A DNA stretch of 64,000 nt from OCS116 cluster bacterium AG-435-F03 (lineage in GTDB: Bacteria; Pseudomonadota; Alphaproteobacteria; MED-G09). The DNA lies in assembly GCA_003212795.1 (NCBI GenBank), contig QCOV01000003.1, forward strand, positions 78,676 through 142,675, read 5' to 3'. Below, piece after piece: positions 1,753 through 35,487 of the stretch. The translations under genes were made by a program, and so were the position numbers. Position 1 is the first letter of the stretch, and every line of letters begins with the position of its first letter. The notes beneath the pieces are model-generated. The model was given only the letters and a program-made list of their open reading frames with translations, had not been told where the DNA came from and made no database searches.

Positions 1753-3330
1753 TTAGAGCTTACCTTCAATAGCCTTATCAATGAGATCAATAACTTCTTT
1801 AACGCCATAAAGGATAATAAATGAACCCAATCTTGGTCCTTGCGTTTGTCCAAGAAGAATTTCATATAAAGCAGAAAACCAATCCTTCAAAGACTCAAAA
1901 TGACTATTCATTCCAATATCATAAATTATAGTTTGAATTTTCTCTGGATCAGTTTCATTTTCCATCTCTAGAAGGTTTTCTTTAAGAGTTTCAAGATATT
2001 CAATCTCTTGTTTTTCTGGTTTACGATATTTTTTAGTAGGTAAAACAAAGTCCTTGTAATATTCCAATGCGAAAACAACTAATTGATCAATATATTGACT
2101 GGCCTCTTCAGAAATATCGTCAAAATATCCCTTTATAAAACCCCAGATTACTTCTTTGCTACTGGCTTGAGAGGCGCTAACGAGATTTAAAATCAGTGAA
2201 AATGTAACCGGACTTTCAATTATTATTGGATTACCGTCATGAATATGAAAAACCGGATTACTTAATTGATCTTTTACTTCTTGGTTAGGATATTTTTCTG
2301 AAAAACTTTGATATTCATCTACAGCTTTAGGAATAACATCAAATGTTAGTTTTTTTGCTCTTCTTGGATTCTGATACATATATAAGATGAGACTTTCTTT
2401 TGAAGCAAATTTAAGCCAGTCATCTATTGAAATACCATTACCCTTAGATTTAGATATCTTTTCACCTTTTTCATCAAAAAATAATTCATAATTGAAACCA
2501 ACTGGAGCAAAACCTCCAATTGCTTTACATATTTTTCCTGAAAGAGTTACAGATTCAATTAAGTCTTTTCCTGCCATCTCATAATCAACATCTAATGCAA
2601 CCCAACGCATTGCCCAATCAGCTTTCCATTGTAATTTACATTTACCACCTAAAATGGATGTTTCTTTTTCTTCCTGCGTATTTGGATGCTCATATAAAAT
2701 TGATTTTTCTTTTGTATTGTAATCTAAAACTTTTGCGAGTAGTACCTGTCCAGTGTCCGGACAAATAGGTAGAAAAGGTGAATAAGTTTTTTTTCTTTCC
2801 TCACCTATCGTTGGTAAAATGATATTTATAATTGCTTCATAATTTTCTAAGATCTTAGATAATGTCTCATCAAAATTACCATTCTTGTAATAATCTGTTG
2901 CACTAGCAAATTCATATTCAAAACCAAATTGATCGAGAAACTCTTTTAATAAATTATTATTATGATCAGCAAAACTTGAAAATTTATGATAAGGATCAGG
3001 AATATCTGATAATGGCTTTTCTAAATTTTCAGATAATATTTTAGAATTTGGAATATTATCAGGGACTTTTCTTAATGCATCCATGTCATCAGAAAAACAT
3101 ATTAATTTTGTTTCGATGCTTTTATCTAATACCTTAAGAGCATGCCTAACCATTGATGTCCGAGCAACTTCTCCAAAAGTACCTATATGAGGTAAACCTG
3201 AAGCTCCATAACCAGTTTCAAACACGGCACTATTGGAACCTGACTTTTCAAGGCGCTTTAAAATTTTTCTTGCCTCTTCGAAAGGCCATGACTTGCTTTC
3301 TTGGGCTACAGATATTATTGATTTATTCAT
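1753..3330 (-). CDS. lysS: Lysine--tRNA ligase, class I
   Basis: FETGYGASGLPHIGT (HIGH-like) and KISKSKGN (KMSKS-like) motifs; C-terminal GPRLG. Confidence 0.95.
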   Translation of the reverse strand: MNKSIISVAQESKSWPFEEARKILKRLEKSGSNSAVFETGYGASGLPHIGTFGEVARTSMVRHALKVLDKSIETKLICFSDDMDALRKVPDNIPNSKILSENLEKPLSDIPDPYHKFSSFADHNNNLLKEFLDQFGFEYEFASATDYYKNGNFDETLSKILENYEAIINIILPTIGEERKKTYSPFLPICPDTGQVLLAKVLDYNTKEKSILYEHPNTQEEKETSILGGKCKLQWKADWAMRWVALDVDYEMAGKDLIESVTLSGKICKAIGGFAPVGFNYELFFDEKGEKISKSKGNGISIDDWLKFASKESLILYMYQNPRRAKKLTFDVIPKAVDEYQSFSEKYPNQEVKDQLSNPVFHIHDGNPIIIESPVTFSLILNLVSASQASSKEVIWGFIKGYFDDISEEASQYIDQLVVFALEYYKDFVLPTKKYRKPEKQEIEYLETLKENLLEMENETDPEKIQTIIYDIGMNSHFESLKDWFSALYEILLGQTQGPRLGSFIILYGVKEVIDLIDKAIEGKL

Positions 3331-23516: not shown

Positions 23517-24590
23517 TCATGAACCTACTTTTAAAGATATCAGAGGAAGATCAAGAAAAGAAACAAAACCTGGCTCAGCATCACAGACATAAGGTATCGC
23601 ATTTACCCCATGCATAGCTGTTGAAATAAGAGGATCATCATTCCAGTCATGACTGAAAGAGACTTTCATTTTTGGCACTCCCTCAACTTCTACAGTAACA
23701 CCTACAGGATCATTCCATTCTGGCGCTGAATCTTCGCTCGCTCTATAAATTGCCTCTTGAATAATTGTAACATCATTAGAGCAATTTCCTGTCCATTTAC
23801 GTCTTTGTGCAGCAATAGTTCCTTTAGCAATTTTACCTGCAGCAATTTCAAAGTCTTTTTCAGCAGTAACCAGTTTTAAATCTTCTTCAACATCTAAAAC
23901 TTCCACACCTATTCCTTCAGCAATGAGATAAATAGCTTCTTTAAATAAACCTGATAACCACGCCTCATAGCGTTCAGCTTCAACTTCATATTCTTCCATA
24001 GTCTTGCCCATAAGCATCCCATCAATAACGATCTCTTTTGAAGGATAATAAGAAAACTCTGAACTCTCACTTACAATTATTTTTTTAATTTCCTGAGACA
24101 TCCCAGTCATTGTAAGAGGGACCAACTCAGCAAGCCAACCAGGATTATATCCTGTTCCATGCAAGCTTACTCCGCCCTCTTTACATGCGCTTTCAATTTC
24201 ATTTAAATAATCTTCTCCAAATGCTTTAGGAAAAAGAAAACCAACTGTAGTAACTACATTAATTCCACTTCTTAGAATTTTGATAATATTTTTTTTATCG
24301 AGATCGGGGTCCTCATTAACTCTAAATGAGGCTAAAGGAGTATAATTAATACAATCAATATCTAAATCTGCATTTAAAAATTCATCTATATTATTTGTAG
24401 CTTTTACCCCTAATTCTTCAATGCCAATAATGGCTCCAGCATCCATCCCGATTTTGTTTTCATCAGAAACTATTAAACCGGAAAGATTTAAATCTTTTCT
24501 ATTATTAATACCAATGATTGAAGCCTTACCAACATTGCCGCTTGACCATTGAACAACATTATATGTTTCTTTTTTCAAAATATTCTCCAT
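23517..24590 (-). CDS. NAD(P)-dependent oxidoreductase, dihydrodipicolinate-reductase-like / diaminopentanoate dehydrogenase family
   Basis: VVQWSSGNVG, KIGMDAG, GINVVTT, SLHGTGYNPG, TAMHGVNAIPYVCDAEPG. Confidence 0.75.
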   Translation of the reverse strand: MENILKKETYNVVQWSSGNVGKASIIGINNRKDLNLSGLIVSDENKIGMDAGAIIGIEELGVKATNNIDEFLNADLDIDCINYTPLASFRVNEDPDLDKKNIIKILRSGINVVTTVGFLFPKAFGEDYLNEIESACKEGGVSLHGTGYNPGWLAELVPLTMTGMSQEIKKIIVSESSEFSYYPSKEIVIDGMLMGKTMEEYEVEAERYEAWLSGLFKEAIYLIAEGIGVEVLDVEEDLKLVTAEKDFEIAAGKIAKGTIAAQRRKWTGNCSNDVTIIQEAIYRASEDSAPEWNDPVGVTVEVEGVPKMKVSFSHDWNDDPLISTAMHGVNAIPYVCDAEPGFVSFLDLPLISLKVGS

Positions 24591-24675
24591 TTATTAAAAA
24601 ATATCTTAATTTGCTAATTAGATTATGTCATGAGATTTACATTTTAATATAAACTATTCATATAAATAAATTTAT

Positions 24676-24705
24676 AAAAAAAGGCCATCACTAGAGTGAT
24701 GGCCT
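24676..24705 (-). terminator. Intrinsic terminator after ppx
   Basis: AGGCCATCAC-TCTA-GTGATGGCCT hairpin followed by a T run on the minus strand. Confidence 0.85.
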
Positions 24706-24773
24706 GAACTTATTTAAGCTGAATAAAACATTGTGGGGAGGTTAGTAATATTCAAACAAATTCGCTAACACAT
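24676..24773 (-). ncRNA. Candidate 3'UTR-derived sRNA with an anti-Shine-Dalgarno seed
   Basis: CCUCCCCACAA lies between the ppx stop and the terminator and is complementary to the RBS at 35234-35244. Confidence 0.3.
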
Positions 24774-25703
24774 TTAAGCGCACAATGTGTCATATTTATA
24801 AACATTAGGTAAAACTTTTTTTATTTGCGAATAGGCTATTCCATCTATTAATCCCCAAGGTAATGCATAAATTTTTTTTATTTTAAGCTTTTGAGCTATA
24901 TATAGATATATTGAACCAGTATATTTTATAGTTTCTGCTCTATCAGAGGTAATATTAAGGAGATCACTTGTGCGCTTTTTATCGAGATAGCTAATAGAAT
25001 AAATTAAATCATTAAAATCTTCAGTTTTAAAATTATCTTTATTTTGTTTTTTTATTAAACCTCTTATTCCTCCACCGCTACCAAACATATAATTAAAATT
25101 TTTATTTTCAAAATTTGATAAGTAATTACCCATTTCTTGCCATTTGAGTTTATTGATTTTTGACTGATATAAAGAAACACCGCCAATAGGAAAGGATTTT
25201 AAATCAAAAATTTTTCCTCCTTTAATAAATATTAATTCTGTACTACCTCCGCCAACATCAACTATGACATAATTTTTTTCTGTATTTGTTTTATCAATTA
25301 ATGTGTTATTAGGAATACCAAGATTCTTAATAAGTTTGATTTCATCTTCACCAGAGATAACTTCTATTTCAAGGTCACAAAATTTTCTCAACTCATTAAT
25401 AATATTTCCTCTATTTTTTGCCTGCCTGATTGCAGCAGTTGCGCAAGCTCGAACATAATTAACCCCATTGTCTTTTGCTGTTTTTTCAAAGTCTTTTAAA
25501 AGTTTACCCAATTTTTTAATCGTCTTCTTTTTAATTTTTTTATTGGACCCATCATAAATATCTTTTGCTAGTCGTAATGGTACTCTTCTTCTTAATTCCT
25601 TGATTTCATATAAAGATTCACATGCAGCGTCATAATTATATATTCTATTTTTGATAGAATTTGAGCCTATATCTATTGCTGATATTTTAAACGAATCACC
25701 CAA
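24774..25703 (-). CDS. ppx: Ppx/GppA family exopolyphosphatase (short form)
   Basis: AIDIGSNS, ATAAIRQAKN, ISGEDE, DVGGGSTE, DRAE. Confidence 0.85.
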   Translation of the reverse strand: MGDSFKISAIDIGSNSIKNRIYNYDAACESLYEIKELRRRVPLRLAKDIYDGSNKKIKKKTIKKLGKLLKDFEKTAKDNGVNYVRACATAAIRQAKNRGNIINELRKFCDLEIEVISGEDEIKLIKNLGIPNNTLIDKTNTEKNYVIVDVGGGSTELIFIKGGKIFDLKSFPIGGVSLYQSKINKLKWQEMGNYLSNFENKNFNYMFGSGGGIRGLIKKQNKDNFKTEDFNDLIYSISYLDKKRTSDLLNITSDRAETIKYTGSIYLYIAQKLKIKKIYALPWGLIDGIAYSQIKKVLPNVYKYDTLCA

Positions 25704-26523
25704 GATATTTAGATAGTATCTTGTATTGATTATAATTCAAATTTTCAAAGACTTCTCCCTCATAGATAAATTGATAATGTCTAGATTCATTATCTAAATT
25801 TCTGGGCTTTAAAACTTTTTTCTTATTATATTCCAACTTATTTATGAGGTAATGCATTGATGAAATTCTAGCTAATCTTTTATTATGAGCATTAATAACA
25901 ACCCACGGAGCTTTATTTGTTGATGTTCTTTCAAACATTTGTTCTTTATATAATTTAAAAACATCAAACTTATTCACAATTTGAGAGTCAGTATCAGAAA
26001 ATTTCCAATATTTAATTGGGCTATCTTTTCGAGATTTAAGCCTGTGTTGCTGAGATTCTTTATCAATAGATAAATAAAACTTCACCAACTCAACTTTATC
26101 ATCCATGAGCTCTTCTTCCCATGTGTTAACTCTATTCATAAAATTTTTATATTGCCTTTGAGAACAAAATCCTAAAGTTGGCTCAATTAACGCTCTGCTA
26201 TACCATGAGCGATCAAAAAAAACTATTTCACCAGGTTTTGGAATTTTTTTTTCATATCGATGAAACCAATTCTTTGACTCCGCTTTTGTAGGAACCCCCA
26301 AGTGAACATAAGAAATTTTATCAGGTATTAAATTTTCAGAAAATTGCTTTATTGCTGCAGTTTTACCTGCTGAATCTCTACCTTCAAAAATAACGGCTAT
26401 TTTTCTTTTGTTATTAATAACATCTTGCTGAAGTTTTACTAACTCTACTTGGAGACGATATTTCTCATTTGCATATGCTTTCTGAGATAATTTCTTATAT
26501 TCTCTTAGATCATAAATAATCAT
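25696..26523 (-). CDS. ppk2: Polyphosphate kinase 2
   Basis: LQVELVKLQ, FEGRDSAGK, FDRSWYSRA, WKFSDTD, APWVVI. Confidence 0.92.
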   Translation of the reverse strand: MIIYDLREYKKLSQKAYANEKYRLQVELVKLQQDVINNKRKIAVIFEGRDSAGKTAAIKQFSENLIPDKISYVHLGVPTKAESKNWFHRYEKKIPKPGEIVFFDRSWYSRALIEPTLGFCSQRQYKNFMNRVNTWEEELMDDKVELVKFYLSIDKESQQHRLKSRKDSPIKYWKFSDTDSQIVNKFDVFKLYKEQMFERTSTNKAPWVVINAHNKRLARISSMHYLINKLEYNKKKVLKPRNLDNESRHYQFIYEGEVFENLNYNQYKILSKYLG

Positions 26524-26550
26524 TAATACTCTCCAGTTAAATGACTTACA

Positions 26551-27201
26551 TTATTTTTTGTTCAAAAACCTTATGAAATAAAATGCTATTAGAGCCCCAA
26601 TTATTTGTGCAATTATAAAGATCAAAATAGAATTTGGGTTTATTCCAGTAAAATTATCAGTAAAAACTCTTGATATTGTAACAGCAGGATTGGCAAAAGA
26701 AGTTGAAGAAGTGAACCAATAAGCTCCAGAAATATATAATCCTACACTTGCAGCAATAGTATTAGATTTATTTGCTTCAATTAGTCCAAATATAGTTGCT
26801 ACTAATCCAAATGTAGCAATTATTTCACTAATAAATAACTTATCCGAATATCTCTCAACCTGAGAAAAGACAAATAGATAATCTGTAAACATATAATTTG
26901 CAATTATCGCACCCAAAATTCCGCCAAAGATTTGAGCAGTAGAAAAATTTATAAATTGTTTAATTGTTAAATCGCCTCTCAACATAAAACAAAATGAAAC
27001 TACGGGATTAAAATGTGCCCCTGAATAAGTAGAAAAAATATTGATAAGAACAAAAAGCATTACACCAGTAGCTAATGTATTTGCAATAAGTTGGTTGCCG
27101 GGTGAATCATTAAATAAATTTTCAGCCATATGACCCGAACCAATAACAGTTGCAACTAAAAAGAATGTACCAATTAATTCACTAAGAAGTTTTTTAGTCA
27201 T
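26551..27201 (-). CDS. MIP/aquaporin family channel, arsenite-efflux type
   Basis: SGAHFNPVV and AYWFTSSTSFANPAVT; directly after arsC; ATG 27201 preferred over 27213. Confidence 0.85.
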   Translation of the reverse strand: MTKKLLSELIGTFFLVATVIGSGHMAENLFNDSPGNQLIANTLATGVMLFVLINIFSTYSGAHFNPVVSFCFMLRGDLTIKQFINFSTAQIFGGILGAIIANYMFTDYLFVFSQVERYSDKLFISEIIATFGLVATIFGLIEANKSNTIAASVGLYISGAYWFTSSTSFANPAVTISRVFTDNFTGINPNSILIFIIAQIIGALIAFYFIRFLNKK

Positions 27202-27745
27202 TTGCTGCCTCAATTAAATAATTACTAATCACCAAAGAAATTTGGTTTCTTCGGTCACTCTTTTTCAAATCTTGAAATTCCTTTTTTTTGGCAATAAATT
27301 CAGTTGAAGCAACAGCATCTTTTAAGAATTGAAATCGTAAACTCAAAATAATAAAAATATTTTCAAAAGCTTTCATAGCTTCATCTTCTGATGAAAAAAT
27401 TGCTGGATCATCTAAATTCCATGAAATCTTCGGAATATCACCAAGCCAAACTGGACATGATGTTTCTTCGGCATTTTGACACAATGTCACTATAATATCA
27501 GGTGACCAAGATCCTTTTATTTTTTTTTCAATATTAAATTCTTCCCAAGATTTACTTCTTAAATATGATTTACTGATAGCAAATTTTTTGAGTGTTTTAA
27601 TGCAAAATGGATTAACTTCGCCAACTGGATCACTCCCTGCTGACTGAAAGGATAGATCATCAAACTCAAAGCTGTTAGCAATGCCTTCAGCCATTATTGA
27701 CCTAGCAGAATTTCCTGTACACAAAAAAAGAATCTTATTTTTCAT
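27194..27745 (-). CDS. arsC: Arsenate reductase (LMW-PTP / thioredoxin type)
   Basis: CTGNSARS P-loop, SAGS, SKSW, TLC...CPVW redox cysteines, WNLDDP. Confidence 0.88.
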   Translation of the reverse strand: MKNKILFLCTGNSARSIMAEGIANSFEFDDLSFQSAGSDPVGEVNPFCIKTLKKFAISKSYLRSKSWEEFNIEKKIKGSWSPDIIVTLCQNAEETSCPVWLGDIPKISWNLDDPAIFSSEDEAMKAFENIFIILSLRFQFLKDAVASTEFIAKKKEFQDLKKSDRRNQISLVISNYLIEAAND

Positions 27746-27787
27746 AAGTCCAAACTATTTTATTGCGCGTTAATATAATTGATTAAT

Positions 27788-27805
27788 ATTACAGAAATAT
27801 TACAA
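27788..27805 (-). promoter_or_regulatory. Pho-box-like repeat upstream of arsC
   Basis: Minus strand TTGTAAT-ATTT-CTGTAAT, 11-bp period, 42 bp before the start. Confidence 0.65.
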
Positions 27806-27819
27806 AGTATTTTAAAAAA

Positions 27820-28764
27820 TTATAGAAATACTTCGTCTTTAACACCAAAGAGAACACCGCGCATCCAAGCATTTGCTGGATCATCAGTAGATCTTTTATT
27901 CCATATCATTTTCACTGAAAATTCATCTGATTTAAATGGTAGAGAAACTACATCAAATTCATCTTTGTTATTTACTAGGGCGCTAACATTACTTGATAAT
28001 GATATAATACAGTCTGTCTCGCGAACTATTTCAATTGCAGCTTGATAATAATTCACTGATACCATTTTATTTCGTTTTCTTCCCATTTTCGCTAATGTCA
28101 CATCTACAGGGCTATTACTGATACCATCTATACTAATGAATACATGGTCTGCAGCTAAAAAGTTTTCAAAACTTATCTTATTATTTTTAATTAATGGATG
28201 GCCTTTCCTTGCAACGCATCGATAAGTATCACGATAAACTTCAAAGCTATCAAAATATTCATCAAATCTTTGTCCAACAGGTGATTCCATTTCCTGGACC
28301 ATATGTGGATCGGCAGCCAAGATAAAATCAATATCATGATTTTTTAATCTTTCTAAAACACCATTTTGCAAAGCAATATTTGTTATTTTTATTTTTGGTG
28401 CTTCTTCTTGAAGTGTTTGAACTACCCTAGCGGCAACTTTTGATGCAGCAACATCAGGTGTACAAAAAACAAATCTTTTTTCAGACTCTGCTGGATTAAA
28501 ACCTTCACGTGTCAATGTACCATCAATTAATTCCAGTGCTTTTTTTATAGGACCAACAAATTCTAAGGCTGCAGGTGTTGGCTGCATGCGATCGCCTGAT
28601 CGAAAAAAAAGATCATCCTTCATTGTATAACGCAATCTATTAAGAGCGTTACTTACAGCAGATTGGGATAAATTAAGTTTATCAGAAGCTTTTGTTATTG
28701 AGCCTTCGTCAAAGATTGAATCAAAGACAACAAGCAGATTTAAATCAAGATTATTAAAATTCAT
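27820..28764 (-). CDS. LysR family transcriptional regulator (NodD/DntR-like)
   Basis: DLNLLVVFD, LNLSQSAVSNALNRLR, DLFFR...MQPT, DPANAWMR. Confidence 0.92.
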   Translation of the reverse strand: MNFNNLDLNLLVVFDSIFDEGSITKASDKLNLSQSAVSNALNRLRYTMKDDLFFRSGDRMQPTPAALEFVGPIKKALELIDGTLTREGFNPAESEKRFVFCTPDVAASKVAARVVQTLQEEAPKIKITNIALQNGVLERLKNHDIDFILAADPHMVQEMESPVGQRFDEYFDSFEVYRDTYRCVARKGHPLIKNNKISFENFLAADHVFISIDGISNSPVDVTLAKMGRKRNKMVSVNYYQAAIEIVRETDCIISLSSNVSALVNNKDEFDVVSLPFKSDEFSVKMIWNKRSTDDPANAWMRGVLFGVKDEVFL

Positions 28765-30191: not shown

Positions 30192-32660
30192 TTACCATTT
30201 AACTCCAGCCTCAATACCATAAGACATTGGTGGACCATATAATGTAAAGTTCCAAAGACCGGCAACGTTGTTAGATCCGTCTCTGTACATTTCATCATTT
30301 AAGTTCTGTCCCCACAATTTAACATAATATTGATCGGCAGCATCTCTCCAAGTTACATTAGCGCTTATAATAGTTCTTTCCTCAAGCTGACTGTAAATCG
30401 GATTAGTAGGTTGAGTTTCAGCCTCATCTTGGAAATAAGTATTAAGGTTATATGTAACCGAACCCATATCACCTAATTCTTGATCATATGTAAAAGATAA
30501 ATACCAACTTAGTTCTGGTGAGAAAGGTAAGCCAAAGCCACTAAAATCAGTTGGATTATCAATACCATCATTTGGTGTTTCATCCCAAACAAAGATATCA
30601 TATTTATGATCCATAACGGCTACATTACCATCAATACGAAGATTATCTGTCGCAAGATAATTAAATTCTAGCTCAAAGCCTTCGTTTGTAGATTTACCAG
30701 CATTAACTTTAACAGTTTCCTGATAAGGTGGAATTGGTAATGGAAGAACCTGATTTCTTTGTAGATCTTCAAATTCAGTATTAAAGATAGCTACATTTAG
30801 TCTTAAACGACCATCCATAAAGTCACCCTTCATACCAAGTTCAATATTCGTATTGGTTTCTGGATCATAAGGATAAGCACAAGAATATGTTGTTGAGCAA
30901 GTTTCAGTATAACCACCTGCCATAAACCCTGTTGCCAATGAAGCATAGAACATCACATCTTCATTCATTGTATAATCAACAACAAATCTGTAAGTTGATT
31001 CACTCCAATCGTCTTTATTATCAACACAGATTGTTCTTAAATCACATGATAACCAGTCAGTATTATATAGAGCAATATCACTGTCACGAGTATAACCACC
31101 TGTACTAATATTATTATTTGGTCTGCCTAAAGCATTATTACCAAGAGTTCCTGTTTCACGAACAAACTGTTTTTCATCTTCTGTTTCACGAATACCTGCA
31201 GAAATTCTCCAAGCTTCATTTATTTCATAAGTAAAATCAAAGTAATATGCCTTACTTGTTCTGTTTTGATGAGTAGCAGTAGATGAATAATCAGTATGAA
31301 TCCATCCTGGTACACCAAGGAACCATTGAAGACCAACAGCAGCATAAGCAGCAAAGTTTAGATTGTCCTCAGCATAACTCACACCTGCTGTAAAATTAAA
31401 TGGACCATCAAATTCACTTGTTAAACGAAACTCTTGTTGCATTTGGTCTCTCTCGGTATTTCTAGAAGCATCATATAAACTTGCAAAAGCTTCACCAGTA
31501 TAAGTACTAGCATTCCTCTCTTCATGATTTCTATAACCCGTTATTGACTTTAATGTGTAGTTATCGCCAATAGCAAAAGTTTGGTTAAAGTAAATACCTT
31601 TACTATCCATTCTGTGGCCCTTACAAATCGAAATTACAGAATTACAATGATAGCTTTCTCCAGTGGCATATGGATTGCTCCATTTCTCTCCACCCCAATT
31701 AGGTGAAGGAGTATGGATTCCAGGAAAACCTAATAAACAAAAAAGTTGGCCACCAGGACAATCAGTTTCATTAACTGTAGGAGGTGAACCAGAGTCATCT
31801 TTACTAATTTCAAAAATTAGATGACCAGAATAACTTGCATTTGGTTCAAATAGTAATTTAACTTTAGCAGCTAAAACATCTTTACCACCAAGATCTCCGC
31901 CATCACCAACATTTGATAAGCTTGTTCCATCATCAGGCCAAGCTGCGGCTGGATTAAGAACAATTGGTCCAGGAAAATCACCAGCTGGTTTAGAGTTAGT
32001 ATAAAAACCTTGGCTCTTATCCCAAATAGCTGCAACTCTCATTGCAATCTTTCCTTCAACAATTGGCGCATTAAGAGCAAGTTTAAATTTATTTATACTT
32101 CCTTCATTCCAATCGTATTGACCTGCCATAGCACTAAACTCACCTGACCATTCGTCAAGTACAGGCTTTTTTGTTGTCACTGAAATCACACCACCAGTAG
32201 CATTCTTTCCGAAGAGAGTTCCTTGCGGACCTCTATAAACCTCGATTTGTTCAATATCAAACATTTCAATAAACTGGGATTGCACATGATTTAATCCAAA
32301 GTCATCAACCAAAAAAGCAACTGAGGGGTCTTCTGTAACTAGAATAGAAATACTTCCTGTACCTCTAATTCCACCTGCAACAGCATTAAATGCAGGTTGC
32401 AAAGTTAAGGTTACATTAGGTACCAAACTAGCAATTGCTCTTGGATCATTTGCATTTTGATTAGCAAAAGCCTGTTCAGTAATAGCTGAAACAGCTATCG
32501 CGGCATCTTGCTGGCCAATATCACGCTTAGTTCCCGTAACAATAATTTCCTCTATTTCTAACCTACTACTTGGCCCTTCTTCTTGAGCATAAGATGTGTT
32601 GATTAAAAATAATGAGAAAGCAATAGCTATCGTTAAGTTTATTCTAGTAATTATTTTCAT
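30192..32660 (-). CDS. TonB-dependent receptor
   Basis: Signal peptide, EEIIVTGTKR TonB-box region, IEVYRGPQGTLFGKNATGG plug motif, C-terminal aromatic residue. Confidence 0.93.
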   Translation of the reverse strand: MKIITRINLTIAIAFSLFLINTSYAQEEGPSSRLEIEEIIVTGTKRDIGQQDAAIAVSAITEQAFANQNANDPRAIASLVPNVTLTLQPAFNAVAGGIRGTGSISILVTEDPSVAFLVDDFGLNHVQSQFIEMFDIEQIEVYRGPQGTLFGKNATGGVISVTTKKPVLDEWSGEFSAMAGQYDWNEGSINKFKLALNAPIVEGKIAMRVAAIWDKSQGFYTNSKPAGDFPGPIVLNPAAAWPDDGTSLSNVGDGGDLGGKDVLAAKVKLLFEPNASYSGHLIFEISKDDSGSPPTVNETDCPGGQLFCLLGFPGIHTPSPNWGGEKWSNPYATGESYHCNSVISICKGHRMDSKGIYFNQTFAIGDNYTLKSITGYRNHEERNASTYTGEAFASLYDASRNTERDQMQQEFRLTSEFDGPFNFTAGVSYAEDNLNFAAYAAVGLQWFLGVPGWIHTDYSSTATHQNRTSKAYYFDFTYEINEAWRISAGIRETEDEKQFVRETGTLGNNALGRPNNNISTGGYTRDSDIALYNTDWLSCDLRTICVDNKDDWSESTYRFVVDYTMNEDVMFYASLATGFMAGGYTETCSTTYSCAYPYDPETNTNIELGMKGDFMDGRLRLNVAIFNTEFEDLQRNQVLPLPIPPYQETVKVNAGKSTNEGFELEFNYLATDNLRIDGNVAVMDHKYDIFVWDETPNDGIDNPTDFSGFGLPFSPELSWYLSFTYDQELGDMGSVTYNLNTYFQDEAETQPTNPIYSQLEERTIISANVTWRDAADQYYVKLWGQNLNDEMYRDGSNNVAGLWNFTLYGPPMSYGIEAGVKW

Positions 32661-32684
32661 TTTAATTCCCCTTAATTACATATT

Positions 32685-35225
32685 TTAATAATTGAATTTA
32701 GCTCTAACACCAATAGATCTAGGAGCTCCATATCTAGCAAAGTTCCAAAGTGTAGCAACTGGGTTAGCAGATACTCTGAATACTTCATCAGTAAGGTTTT
32801 TACCCCAAAGTGTAAGTGCCATATTTTCATTAACTTCCCAAGTTACAAAACCATTAACAAGCGTTCTTTCTTCAGCTTGTGTATTACGCTTTTGTAAAAT
32901 AACTGGATTGTCAGCTGTTCCACCGGCTGCATTAGCAGGTAGTGGGCTTAATTCAAATTCATCACGATGATGGAAACCTAAATTATATATAAGTGAACCA
33001 CCTGAAGCTAAATCCTGGAAGTATGTCACAGATAAACCAGCTGTTAATTCTGGAGAAAATGGAACATTAAGACTTGAAAGATCAGGATTAATTGTAACAC
33101 CAGAAGGTGCGCCAGCTGTTAATGTACCAGCATCCAGACCAGGAGAATATTCGTCATATTCATGATCAAGTATACCTAAGAAACCATCAAAACGTAGGTT
33201 GTCTGTTGGAACATAAGTAGCTTCAATTTCAAAACCAGTTGCTGTTGATTCACCTTCGTTAACAGCAGCAGTTTCCTGGAATTGTGTATCACCAACTAAA
33301 CGAACTTTCACTGAGTCTCTTTGAAGACTTTCATACTCTGTTTGGAAAACAGCAGCATTCAATCTCAATCTACCTTCCATTAAATCAGCTTTCAAGCCAA
33401 GTTCAATGTTAGTATTTTCCTCATCGTTATAAGGCTGACAAGTAAATGTTGATCCACATGTTTCTGTAAAACCACCTGCAACATAACCCGTTGCAATACT
33501 TCCGTATATTAGCGTGTTTTCATTCAATGCATAATCTAGAACAACTCTCCAAGTGTCTGCTTCAAAATCTTTACTATCATCAATAGCAACACCGAAGTCT
33601 TCTTTGTTTAGAGGATTTGTCCAAGGTCCTAAATATTGATCAGGTGTAAATATAAGAGCAAAGCTAGCTCCATCAGGTGCATATTGACGTCTATAGAAGT
33701 CTTTTTCATCTTCTGTGTGTCTAGCACCAACTGTTAATTTTAATTGATCACTAATGTCATAACTAGCATCAATGTAAACAGCTTTACTTGTTCTATCCTG
33801 ACCAGATGCCTGAATTTCAGCAACATTTGCAAATTGTAATGCTCCTGAAGTACCGGCCGGTGAAATTAAGTCAACAAAACCTAAATTACCATAAACAAGA
33901 AACTCAACATCATCAGTATAATAAGCTGCGCCTGCAACAAAATTAAAAGGTCCATCATAATCTGAAGTTATTCTGAATTCTTGTTGGAATTGTTCTCTTC
34001 TTGTATTTCTTGCAGCGTCATAAAGTGATGTAAAAGACTCACCAGTATATGTACTATTTAATATTTCATCTTGATCTCTTTGACCTGTGATAGATTTAAG
34101 AGTGAAGTTTTCAAAATTAAATGTTTGAGTTAAGTAAACACCTTCAACTTCAATTTCATGTCCTCTAGCAACACAAGTAAAGGTATTACATGTTCTAGAT
34201 TCACCTGTGATAAAAGGATTGCCTGGATAAGGTCCGTCTCTATAACCTGGAAAACCTAATATTGGGAATAAATAAGCTTCCGCGCCACCGCCAGGTGTAT
34301 CATTTGCCGTAGCAGGTGCATCACCTTGATCATCAAGTAATTCATAAGTTAAATCTGCTCTGTAGAAATCATTAGGCTGATAAAGCACTTTAAATTTAGC
34401 AGCAAGAACATCCTTACCACCAATTTTACCACCATCACCTACTGATGTATAAGTGCCATCTGCATTTTTAGTAGTGCCTTTATCATTAATTTGTCCACCC
34501 TCAGAATATAAAGCTAATGCTCCAGGACCACCAATTGCGAGTATATTCCCAGATGGCTTACTATTAGTCCAATAGCCTTCTTCTTCATCTTGAATAACAG
34601 ATATACGTACAGCTAATTTGTCTCCAATGGGGAAATTAATTGCTGCATTTATTTTTTCGATTGATGCATCATTTGAAGCATACTGACCATAAGTTGCTTC
34701 AACATCAAAGGTAGTTTCACCAAGAACAGGTTTCTTTGTTGTGAAAGCAATCGCACCACCAGTTGTATTCTTACCGAATAATGTTCCTTGGGGACCACGG
34801 TAAATCTCAACCTGCTCCATATCGAACATTTCGATAGCTTGAGCTTGCACATGGTTAAACGCAAAATCATCAACCACAATACCAACAGATGGGTCTTTAG
34901 TTACAAGAATTGAAATAAAACCTGTACCACGCATACCACCTGCAATAGCATTAAAACCATTTTGAGGAGTTAAAGTAACATTAGGCGCAAGTTGTCCAAG
35001 GGCAAAAACATCATTTCTAAATGTATTTTCAAGTTGCTGTTCTGTAATTGTTGATACAGCTATAGGAACATCCTGCTGAGAAATATCTCTTTTCGTTCCT
35101 GTCACAATAATTTCTTCAATACCAAGACGACCATCTGAGACAGTTTCATCTTGAGCGAATGCATTAAAGTTTAATCCTAATGTAAATATAAATGAAATAA
35201 TTGTTAAAAATCTGATTGAAAGCAT
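32685..35225 (-). CDS. TonB-dependent receptor (paralog of the downstream gene)
   Basis: EEIIVTGTKRD, VEIYRGPQGTLFGKNTTGG, WGKNLTDE, GAPRSIGVRAKFNY. Confidence 0.93.
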   Translation of the reverse strand: MLSIRFLTIISFIFTLGLNFNAFAQDETVSDGRLGIEEIIVTGTKRDISQQDVPIAVSTITEQQLENTFRNDVFALGQLAPNVTLTPQNGFNAIAGGMRGTGFISILVTKDPSVGIVVDDFAFNHVQAQAIEMFDMEQVEIYRGPQGTLFGKNTTGGAIAFTTKKPVLGETTFDVEATYGQYASNDASIEKINAAINFPIGDKLAVRISVIQDEEEGYWTNSKPSGNILAIGGPGALALYSEGGQINDKGTTKNADGTYTSVGDGGKIGGKDVLAAKFKVLYQPNDFYRADLTYELLDDQGDAPATANDTPGGGAEAYLFPILGFPGYRDGPYPGNPFITGESRTCNTFTCVARGHEIEVEGVYLTQTFNFENFTLKSITGQRDQDEILNSTYTGESFTSLYDAARNTRREQFQQEFRITSDYDGPFNFVAGAAYYTDDVEFLVYGNLGFVDLISPAGTSGALQFANVAEIQASGQDRTSKAVYIDASYDISDQLKLTVGARHTEDEKDFYRRQYAPDGASFALIFTPDQYLGPWTNPLNKEDFGVAIDDSKDFEADTWRVVLDYALNENTLIYGSIATGYVAGGFTETCGSTFTCQPYNDEENTNIELGLKADLMEGRLRLNAAVFQTEYESLQRDSVKVRLVGDTQFQETAAVNEGESTATGFEIEATYVPTDNLRFDGFLGILDHEYDEYSPGLDAGTLTAGAPSGVTINPDLSSLNVPFSPELTAGLSVTYFQDLASGGSLIYNLGFHHRDEFELSPLPANAAGGTADNPVILQKRNTQAEERTLVNGFVTWEVNENMALTLWGKNLTDEVFRVSANPVATLWNFARYGAPRSIGVRAKFNY

Positions 35226-35487
35226 AATGTAATCCTCCCCACAAAGTGATTGATTGCTTCAAGTAGTGAACTCAATTTAATTAAAGTGATTCTCATATAT
35301 TAAGAGGCTAATTTCAACTTTTATTTTTCGAAATTATTGAATTACCATATTTAGAGTAGAAATTATCGAAATAACAATATATAGGGGTTTTTTATTACAG
35401 AAAATGCGTTAAAAAGCCCTAAAAATGGGATTTACTAGATAGTTTTTTAAACATATTATCTTATAGTTAATTTTAATAGGATTTGAA

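Follow-up and report, generated by a model that had tools for sequence, protein, structure and literature searches.

C-rich RNAs that act on G-rich ribosome binding sites

It is already established that C-rich apical loops can mask G-rich ribosome binding sites (RBSs). The RNA sX13 of Xanthomonas represses mRNAs with G-rich RBS motifs by means of C-rich loops; its 4C/5C motifs lie in apical loops, and the GGGG targets lie at or near the RBS, act also as translational enhancers, and mark the RBS in only a minority of genes (PMC3771888). The cuckoo RNAs, or alpha-r14 (Rfam RF02344), comprise CcsR1-4 of Rhodobacter sphaeroides and NfeR1 of Sinorhizobium meliloti. They have 2 to 4 adjacent hairpins with CCUCCUCCC in each loop (PMC4615179); repression of mRNAs with a G-rich RBS, excision of CcsR from an mRNA 3′ UTR by RNase E, and a response of NfeR1 to nitrogen stress are described as well (PMC4615179, PMC8034643, PMC10746234). 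RsaE/RNAIII of Staphylococcus and RepG of Helicobacter work on the principle of sX13.

Among enterobacterial RNAs, CpxQ, GlnZ, SroC, and DapZ are sRNAs derived from 3′ UTRs, and OmrA/OmrB repress TonB-dependent receptors; all of these work through single-stranded 5′ seeds, Hfq, and specific targets rather than through a generic anti-Shine-Dalgarno (anti-SD) loop. TonB-dependent receptors make up a large share of the small genome considered here (24 genes in 1.44 Mb), and receptor control in streamlined, regulator-poor bacteria is poorly known.

The ppx cassette and its 3′ UTR

The window is the whole stretch of DNA that was analysed, 64,000 nucleotides long; its source genome (G000) has 1,444,043 bp and 32% G+C, and the genomes compared, 24 in the family, carry labels such as G004 and G017. 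The element under study is the tail of a four-gene operon:

24774..25703, minus strand: Ppx/GppA-family phosphatase gene, 309 aa (Pfam PF02541, E = 1e-33)
25696..26523, minus strand: PPK2 gene, upstream in the ppx cassette (Pfam)
26551..27213, minus strand: MIP channel gene, upstream in the ppx cassette (Pfam)
27194..27745, minus strand: LMW phosphatase/ArsC-like gene, upstream in the ppx cassette (Pfam)
25696..27745, minus strand: the three upstream cassette genes together (Pfam)
24676..24773, minus strand: 3′ UTR of the LMWPc-MIP-ppk2-ppx operon, a 98-nt tail with two adjacent hairpins, first the one with the C-rich loop, then the terminator (sequence, fold)
24706..24763, minus strand: hairpin 1, 15-nt apical loop UAACCUCCCCACAAU (MFE and centroid structures)
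24734..24744, minus strand: conserved core UAACCUCCCCA, common to the ppx 3′ UTR of genus g2 (longest common word of both UTRs)
24731..24741, minus strand: 11-nt seed CCUCCCCACAA (sequence scan)
24675..24705, minus strand: intrinsic terminator, stem-loop 24705..24682 and then U7 (pattern scan)

Pfam gives the operon order as LMW phosphatase (ArsC-like), MIP channel, PPK2, and Ppx, and the operon lies between a LysR gene (27820..28764) and a DAP_DH-like gene (23517..24590; DAP_DH_C domain, PF19328). The operon is an accessory cassette. It is absent from the LysR/DAP_DH-like site in six genus-mates (G006, G002, G009, G005, G003, and G001), where the LysR gene ends immediately ahead of the DAP_DH-like gene, and a close Ppx occurs among the 24 family genomes only in G000, G004 (99% identity), G017 and G018 (45%), and G019 (at a contig edge). 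The presence/absence unit takes in the four genes, the UTR, and the terminator (24640..27800 of the window), and the same site is occupied in another genus.

Past the ppx stop codon the minus-strand RNA reads ...UAUUACUAACCUCCCCACAAUGUUUUAUUC..., followed by the hairpin AGGCCAUCAC-UCUA-GUGAUGGCCU and by U7, and the tail contains UAACCUCCCCACAAUG. The original prediction had seen here a candidate 3′ UTR-derived sRNA located between the ppx stop and its terminator. The location is borne out: a pattern scan finds an intrinsic terminator of 10 pairs, 6 of them G-C, where 0.1 such sites would be expected in shuffles, and the element is placed as processed sRNAs are, downstream of the last stop codon of a protein-coding operon and ahead of its intrinsic terminator. 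The 98-nt UTR folds with an MFE of -27.9 kcal/mol (z = -4.94), and 0 of 200 shuffles were equally stable. Hairpin 1 begins 10 nt past the ppx stop; its stem of 6-7 A-U-rich pairs is by our estimate not significant alone. Such A-U-rich stems are short, and by themselves they are left out of the evidence count.

The cuckoo RNAs resemble the ppx element in modular hairpins, a C-rich anti-SD loop word, freely differing stems, and (predicted, in our case) action on the RBS of transport or nutrient genes; in addition, the ammonium-transporter (amt) 3′ UTR of genus g2 has two adjacent hairpins, both with a C-rich loop. The differences are that i) the motif here is CCUCCCC(A), not CCUCCUCCC; ii) the ppx element has one C-rich loop, its second hairpin being an ordinary terminator with loop UCUA; and iii) the predicted targets here are TonB-dependent receptors, whereas the cuckoo targets described are ABC-transporter binding proteins. 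Cuckoo modules have a helix of at least 6 bp, a loop of 9-27 nt, a hairpin of 24-50 nt, and a linker of at most 10 nt; in the ppx UTR a descriptor scan finds a 7-bp stem and a 23-nt loop, and the MFE structure lengthens the hairpin to 58 nt, abutting the terminator. RF02344 is absent from the Rfam hits at E <= 10 for the window region, for the amt loci of G000 and G017, and for the ppx locus of G018, and no family came near its threshold; the weak hits (MicC, 24.3 bits; isrD, 22.4; suhB/mmgR, 12.8; and others) are driven by terminator shape. A DUF1127 gene was searched for and not found. Since motif, number of C-rich loops, and Rfam model all depart from the cuckoo pattern, we class the ppx element as working like such RNAs, not as a member of their family.

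With sX13 the ppx element has in common a C-run in an apical loop (a predicted loop in ppx, where the variant at metagenome locus L074 has the word partly paired) and computed targets enriched in G-runs at the translation start. However, sX13 has a gene of its own, carries three C-rich loops, and is Hfq-independent, whereas the ppx element lies in an mRNA 3′ UTR and has no sequence relationship to it. The enterobacterial 3′ UTR sRNAs are alike in their position from stop codon to terminator and in their link to the signal of the parent operon, and OmrA/OmrB in receptor repression, but neither group is homologous to the ppx element. Within a limited library, the literature on 3′ UTR sRNAs with ammonium transporters and on TonB-dependent receptors of the PS1 clade or SAR86 yielded no description of a ppx/amt C-rich module; the ncRNA locus in PMC3358033 is unrelated.

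The C-rich loop might conceivably act on its own transcript or its neighbor, by masking the SD of ppk2, of ppx, or, on read-through, of the DAP_DH-like gene, which is co-directional with the cassette and occupies the same downstream position in both genera. Yet the SDs CUGGAGAG (ppk2) and AUGGAGAA and AUGGGAGU (downstream gene) give only 4-5 pairs, and the downstream gene has its own promoter-like CATGACATAAT past the terminator, kept in all six cassette-less genus-mates as well; we regard such an action as very improbable.

Parts of the locus occur in 17 RNA-labelled runs. Contigs from four of these runs (X1, X2, X3, and X7, of four studies) place pieces on the ppk2/ppx coding sequence (25170..25776 and 26125..26638) and on the downstream gene, and leave 24582..25169 uncovered, which says nothing either way because such contigs can show neither ends nor levels. 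An independent sRNA with an internal promoter is unsupported, promoter-like sites being rarer than in shuffles (3 against 5.2, with one 9-of-12 match at 24946..24918). We also considered a rut (Rho-loading) site, and did not favor it, since the patch rich in C spans about 8 nt and an intrinsic terminator comes next.

Complementarity to a TonB-dependent receptor leader

The pairing partner lies upstream of two receptor genes in the window:

30192..35225, minus strand: two tandem TonB-dependent receptor genes, 32685..35225 and 30192..32660 (Pfam PF00593, PF07715)
35226..35297, minus strand: receptor-operon leader, preceded by a conserved promoter-like TTGAAA...GAGAAT (putative, read from the alignment)
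35234..35244, minus strand: predicted target UUGUGGGGAGG, with the SD GGAGG at 35238..35234 and the start codon at 35225 (sequence, alignment, target ranking)

The leader reads CACUUUGUGGGGAGGAUUACAUUAUG, with GGAGG 8 nt ahead of the ATG at 35225, and in a second quoted stretch CUUUGUGGGGAGGAUUACAUUAUG. The 11-base contiguous complement between the ppx 3′ UTR and this SD, on which the original prediction was built, is present at both sites, as is its extension by three pairs past one bulge (UAA:UUA). TTGTGGGGAGG occurs at 24731..24741 (plus strand) and 35234..35244 (minus strand), the sole two matches in the window even at one mismatch (0.35 expected by chance; 6 of 100 shuffles gave at least two); the whole genome holds two exact copies, one in the ppx 3′ UTR and the other as the complement over the receptor SD. 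A word found only twice in a genome is not a dispersed repeat, and that reading, foreseen as one that would undo the prediction, is ruled out.

The G004 leader is GGAGGUUAC, which gives 14 contiguous pairs with the seed. All 6 of the 6 genus-mates with the whole leader aligned (80-94% identity overall) have the segment CACUUUGUGGGGAGG unchanged, the last ~26 nt of the leader, AAGCAAUCAAUCACUUUGUGGGGAGG, are conserved in an alignment of 6 genomes, and the leader fold is not more stable than shuffles (z = 0.21). Four of these six genus-mates have no ppx cassette, their LysR gene directly adjoining the downstream gene. Since CACUUUGUGGGGAGG is invariant nonetheless, ppx RNA cannot be what keeps the leader as it is. 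Conservation of the receptor leader extends farther 5′ than the predicted pairing, and at 35245..35330 of the window (minus strand) there is a conserved promoter-like TTGAAA-17-GAGAAT together with a CA-rich stretch AAGCAAUCAAUCAC just 5′ of the G-run.

The likeness of UTR and leader raises the question of whether the plus strand is the functional one, either because TGGGGAGGTTA is the SD of a small antisense ORF or because the cassette carried a receptor leader with it, of which this is the remnant. The plus strand does read TTGTGGGGAGGTTA, 14 nt identical to the G004/G009 form of the leader, but the similarity ends after those 14 nt, G000 lacks a start codon at SD distance while G017 has just an unshared 8-codon TTG frame, and the T-run of the terminator fits the minus strand. 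We regard plus-strand function as very improbable; on the missing start codon, the 14-nt limit of the similarity, and the minus-strand terminator we reject both the antisense small ORF and the duplicated leader.

It could also be that an 11-mer complement between the UTR and one of ~1400 RBSs arose by chance and is functionless. The best duplex of a 20-nt seed against the 1400 start regions has an energy of -23.5 kcal/mol, and 4 of 150 composition-preserving shuffled seeds find a target as good; the pair was picked after the fact; and, as the original prediction itself warned, part of the match (5 of the 11 bases) is the generic GGAGG. Taken alone, the energy of the ppx/receptor pairing exceeds chance only moderately, and what lifts the case above chance is conservation and target class, not the 11-mer by itself. 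Against chance stand the conservation of the core across genera (p about 0.0004-0.006) and the distribution of the 10-mer CCUCCCCACA, which occurs three times in the genome, at places all non-coding and RNA-relevant (the loops of two 3′ UTRs, ppx and, 13 nt after the gene, amt, and as the complement in the receptor leader), where composition would by estimate give ~0.3. Mere coincidence is, on this evidence, improbable.

G-rich SDs as a mark of receptor genes

The gene set searched consists of 1400 crude ORF-based calls, some of whose starts are surely wrong; 4 of the 24 TonB-dependent receptors found in G000 have starts that looked internal. Of these 24 receptors, 9 have GGGGAG no more than 25 nt from the start, as do 8 of 1376 other genes (Fisher 5e-13); for GGGG at the same distance the numbers are 15 of the 24 and 60 of the 1376 (75 of 1400 genes in all). 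A special G-run SD, UGGGGAG[G/A], thus recurs on TonB-dependent receptor genes across G000, within the window at 35226..35250 and 32661..32684, and the orthologous receptors across the family all have a G-run SD, in forms such as UGUGGGGAGA, CUGGGGAGG, AUGGGGAGG, CCGGGGAGG, and similar. What does not survive is the idea of a pairing private to ppx and one receptor: GGGGAG(G) stands in the leaders of 9 of the 24 receptors, and an amt 3′ UTR match is equally long. The conserved core itself is matched by an 11-bp complement at another receptor (G000 C1:110307).

Ranked by duplex energy, with accessibility ignored, the receptor named in the original prediction comes first of 1400 for a 31-nt seed against positions -35..+15 (-23.7 kcal/mol), and receptors hold 5 of the first 10 places and 8 of the first 20; for the 20-nt seed against -25..+5 their share among the same 1400 is 6 of the first 10 and 9 of the first 20. 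None of 150 shuffled 20-nt seeds reached these numbers (receptor means 0.57 in the top 10 and 1.09 in the top 20, maxima 4 and 7). With the 16S anti-SD 3′ tail as seed, receptors number 0 in the top 10 and 1 in the top 20, so they are not merely the genes with the best SDs. On the other hand, because receptors have G-run SDs, any RNA that contains CCCC will "target" receptors, and the enrichment therefore speaks of compatibility rather than regulation; G-rich SDs could simply be translational enhancers. Both Hfq (60.5 bits) and RNase E/G (327 bits) are encoded.

Conservation of the UTR core

In genus g2 the ppx 3′ UTR reads ...CAAUUAACCUCCCCAGUUUAUUGUU, followed by the terminator. The core UAACCUCCCCA is kept there (G017, G018, and G019; metagenome loci L076 and L077) although Ppx is 45% identical, and nothing comparable to UAACCUCCCCA matches between the remainders of the g2 and G000 UTRs. 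When both pre-terminator parts were shuffled 5000 times, the length of the core was reached in 32 and its information content in 2 of the 5000. In both clades the C-run is predicted to be looped out by a hairpin directly adjoining the intrinsic terminator. The seed is thus more conserved than the rest of the UTR, in that an 11-nt core is common to two genera, a comparison of two lineages. Each lineage is near-identical inside among the sequences searched, so that conservation amounts to a single comparison: the metagenome scan gave 15 loci, of which just 4 have this UTR, all near-identical to clade A or clade B; the one locus from the genome-contig scan is G004; and widening the search to the order added nothing to the 24 family genomes. 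The G004 UTR is 100% identical to that of G000 and says nothing about constraint, since the two genomes are ~99% identical over the 3.65 kb compared. The UTR of metagenome locus L074 has two substitutions outside the core. At the distant Ppx loci L078 and L079 (43-44% identity) the 3′ contexts are other ones and the motif is absent.

The L074 UTR (2431..2528 of a metagenome contig) is a natural variant in which both substitutions fall just 3′ of the core; one of them creates an AACCU/AGGUU pairing predicted to bury part of the CCU of the word.

Covariation of seed and target in relatives had been proposed as a check in the original prediction. Between the ppx UTRs of clades A and B, the nucleotide that follows CCCCA switches from C to G while the leader switches from G to C, and in 3 of 4 comparisons the ppx seed forms a stronger duplex with the leader of its own clade than with that of the other. 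For the amt loop and the receptor leader in 11 genomes, the own-genome mean (-19.7) is not better than that with genus-mates (-21.1), though better than that of cross-genus pairs (-17.6). Taken together the co-evolution tests are weak.

A related element after the ammonium-transporter gene

The third copy of the 10-mer belongs to an element outside the window:

G000 C1:74732..76021, outside the window: ammonium-transporter gene (PF00909)
G000 C1:76013..76095 (locus L124 1501..1583), plus strand, outside the window: amt two-hairpin RNA element (alignment, covariance model)

The amt element is much better supported than the ppx UTR element. A 10-bp stem that includes the stop codon carries a loop with CCUCCCCACAUUG, a terminator follows directly, and this layout is present in all 19 of 19 orthologous amt genes of the family; the loop word is CCUCCCC, CUCCCC, or CCUCCC in 15 of the 19 and a weaker C-rich one (UUCCCC, GCCUCCACA) in 4. 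In genus g2 the terminator loop, too, has a run of at least 4 C in 5 of 7 genomes (G015, G017, G022, G019, and G020). A covariance model (R1) built from 12 sequences recovers the amt site in 19 of 24 genomes, including 7 outside the training set. Its model-fitted alignment has 20 rows, one of which is a reverse-strand terminator match; the cells in it pair to 97.7%, compensatory changes support 8 of the 18 pairs, and a covariation score as high was seen in 0 of 500 shuffles. R1 gives no match at the ppx locus at E <= 1 in the 24 genomes, and the amt element has no Rfam match near threshold at the amt loci of G000 and G017.

The amt loop has an 11-bp match (UCCUCCCCACA:UGUGGGGAGGA) to the receptor leader at 35225, which is again its top predicted target, and within one genome the amt and ppx loops have CCUCCCCACAWUG in common. 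The two elements are alike in their place on the mRNA, in the two-hairpin layout, and in a near-identical loop word (CCUCCCCACAUUG in amt, CCUCCCCACAAUG in ppx), and differ in their unrelated stems, that of amt holding the stop codon while the ppx hairpin starts 10 nt after it. They have loop word and layout in common, not a demonstrable ancestry.

These features bear on a further explanation, that the C-rich hairpin is a cis-acting 3′-end element (an exonuclease stabiliser, a termination helper, or a protein site) whose SD complementarity is a by-product of homopolymer-richness. The hairpin always adjoins a terminator, the inclusion of the stop codon in the amt stem suggests coupling to translation termination in cis, and there is no signal of co-evolution with the leader. 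Left unexplained, however, are the retention of a CCUCCCC-type loop, rather than any loop, in two unrelated 3′ UTRs and two genera, and the CCUCCCCACAWUG common to both loops within a genome. We think a purely cis role unlikely.

Proposed mechanism

We suggest instead, tentatively and with slightly more doubt than confidence, that the ppx 3′ UTR is a C-rich anti-SD module that pairs with the G-rich SDs of receptors. In such a scheme i) the ppk2-ppx 3′ UTR would present a hairpin with loop UAACCUCCCCACAA, with the intrinsic terminator directly after it; ii) the UTR would act within the mRNA or might be cut off and accumulate as an RNA of ~70-100 nt; iii) the loop would pair in vivo with the G-rich RBS (UGGGGAGG type) of TonB-dependent receptor mRNAs, the receptor at 35225 providing the longest match to it; iv) pairing would probably lower receptor translation; v) the genome would hold at least two such modules, that of ppx and the one ending the ammonium-transporter mRNA; and vi) expression of nutrient-handling operons, under a presumed inducing signal, would in this way be coupled to how much outer-membrane receptor is made.

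An sRNA cut from the 3′ UTR, as originally proposed, is plausible, and better founded than the sequence alone could tell, given a core conserved in a second genus, a predicted loop, encoded Hfq and RNase E/G, and a top-ranked target; it is also unproven, and the contigs of four RNA runs cover none of the UTR. The weakest part of the earlier reading is that ppx RNA acts on this one receptor under phosphate starvation. The evidence favours a more general version, in which C-rich modules borne on 3′ UTRs would face a receptor-specific class of G-rich SDs. More ambitiously, several nutrient mRNAs of this abundant, small-genome marine lineage (amt, the ppk2-ppx cassette, and perhaps more) might end in interchangeable C-rich anti-SD modules that jointly set the translation of the whole receptor fleet through GGGG-type SDs, a 3′ UTR network that would link nitrogen and phosphorus status to the uptake of organic substrates and to which accessory cassettes would bring a module of their own; we find this possible, though on balance doubtful. 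If true, it would couple nitrogen and phosphorus handling to organic-matter uptake post-transcriptionally and without extra regulator genes, and would extend the anti-SD principle of cuckoo and sX13 to a new target class and to the 3′ UTRs of transporter mRNAs.

Other C-run hairpins

An intergenic 12-bp hairpin lies past a thiolase gene and the terminator of that gene at L152 1488..1527 (G017 C1:33363..33402) and at the same site in G018 (L158). The gene strand has CUGGGGAGG in the loop; the opposite strand has CCUCCCCAG, which is the ppx word of clade B. The hairpin may be either an SD mimic or decoy or a further C-rich module. Additional intergenic hairpins whose loops hold a C-run, and which may be free-standing elements of this type, are found in G000 at C1:421845..421885 (plus strand), C4:99175..99235, and C3:72955..72995 (plus strand); an example of such a hairpin, ACCUCU-AUCCCCCCCACCUAUGAUC-AGAGGU followed by a U-run, lies between two minus-strand genes.
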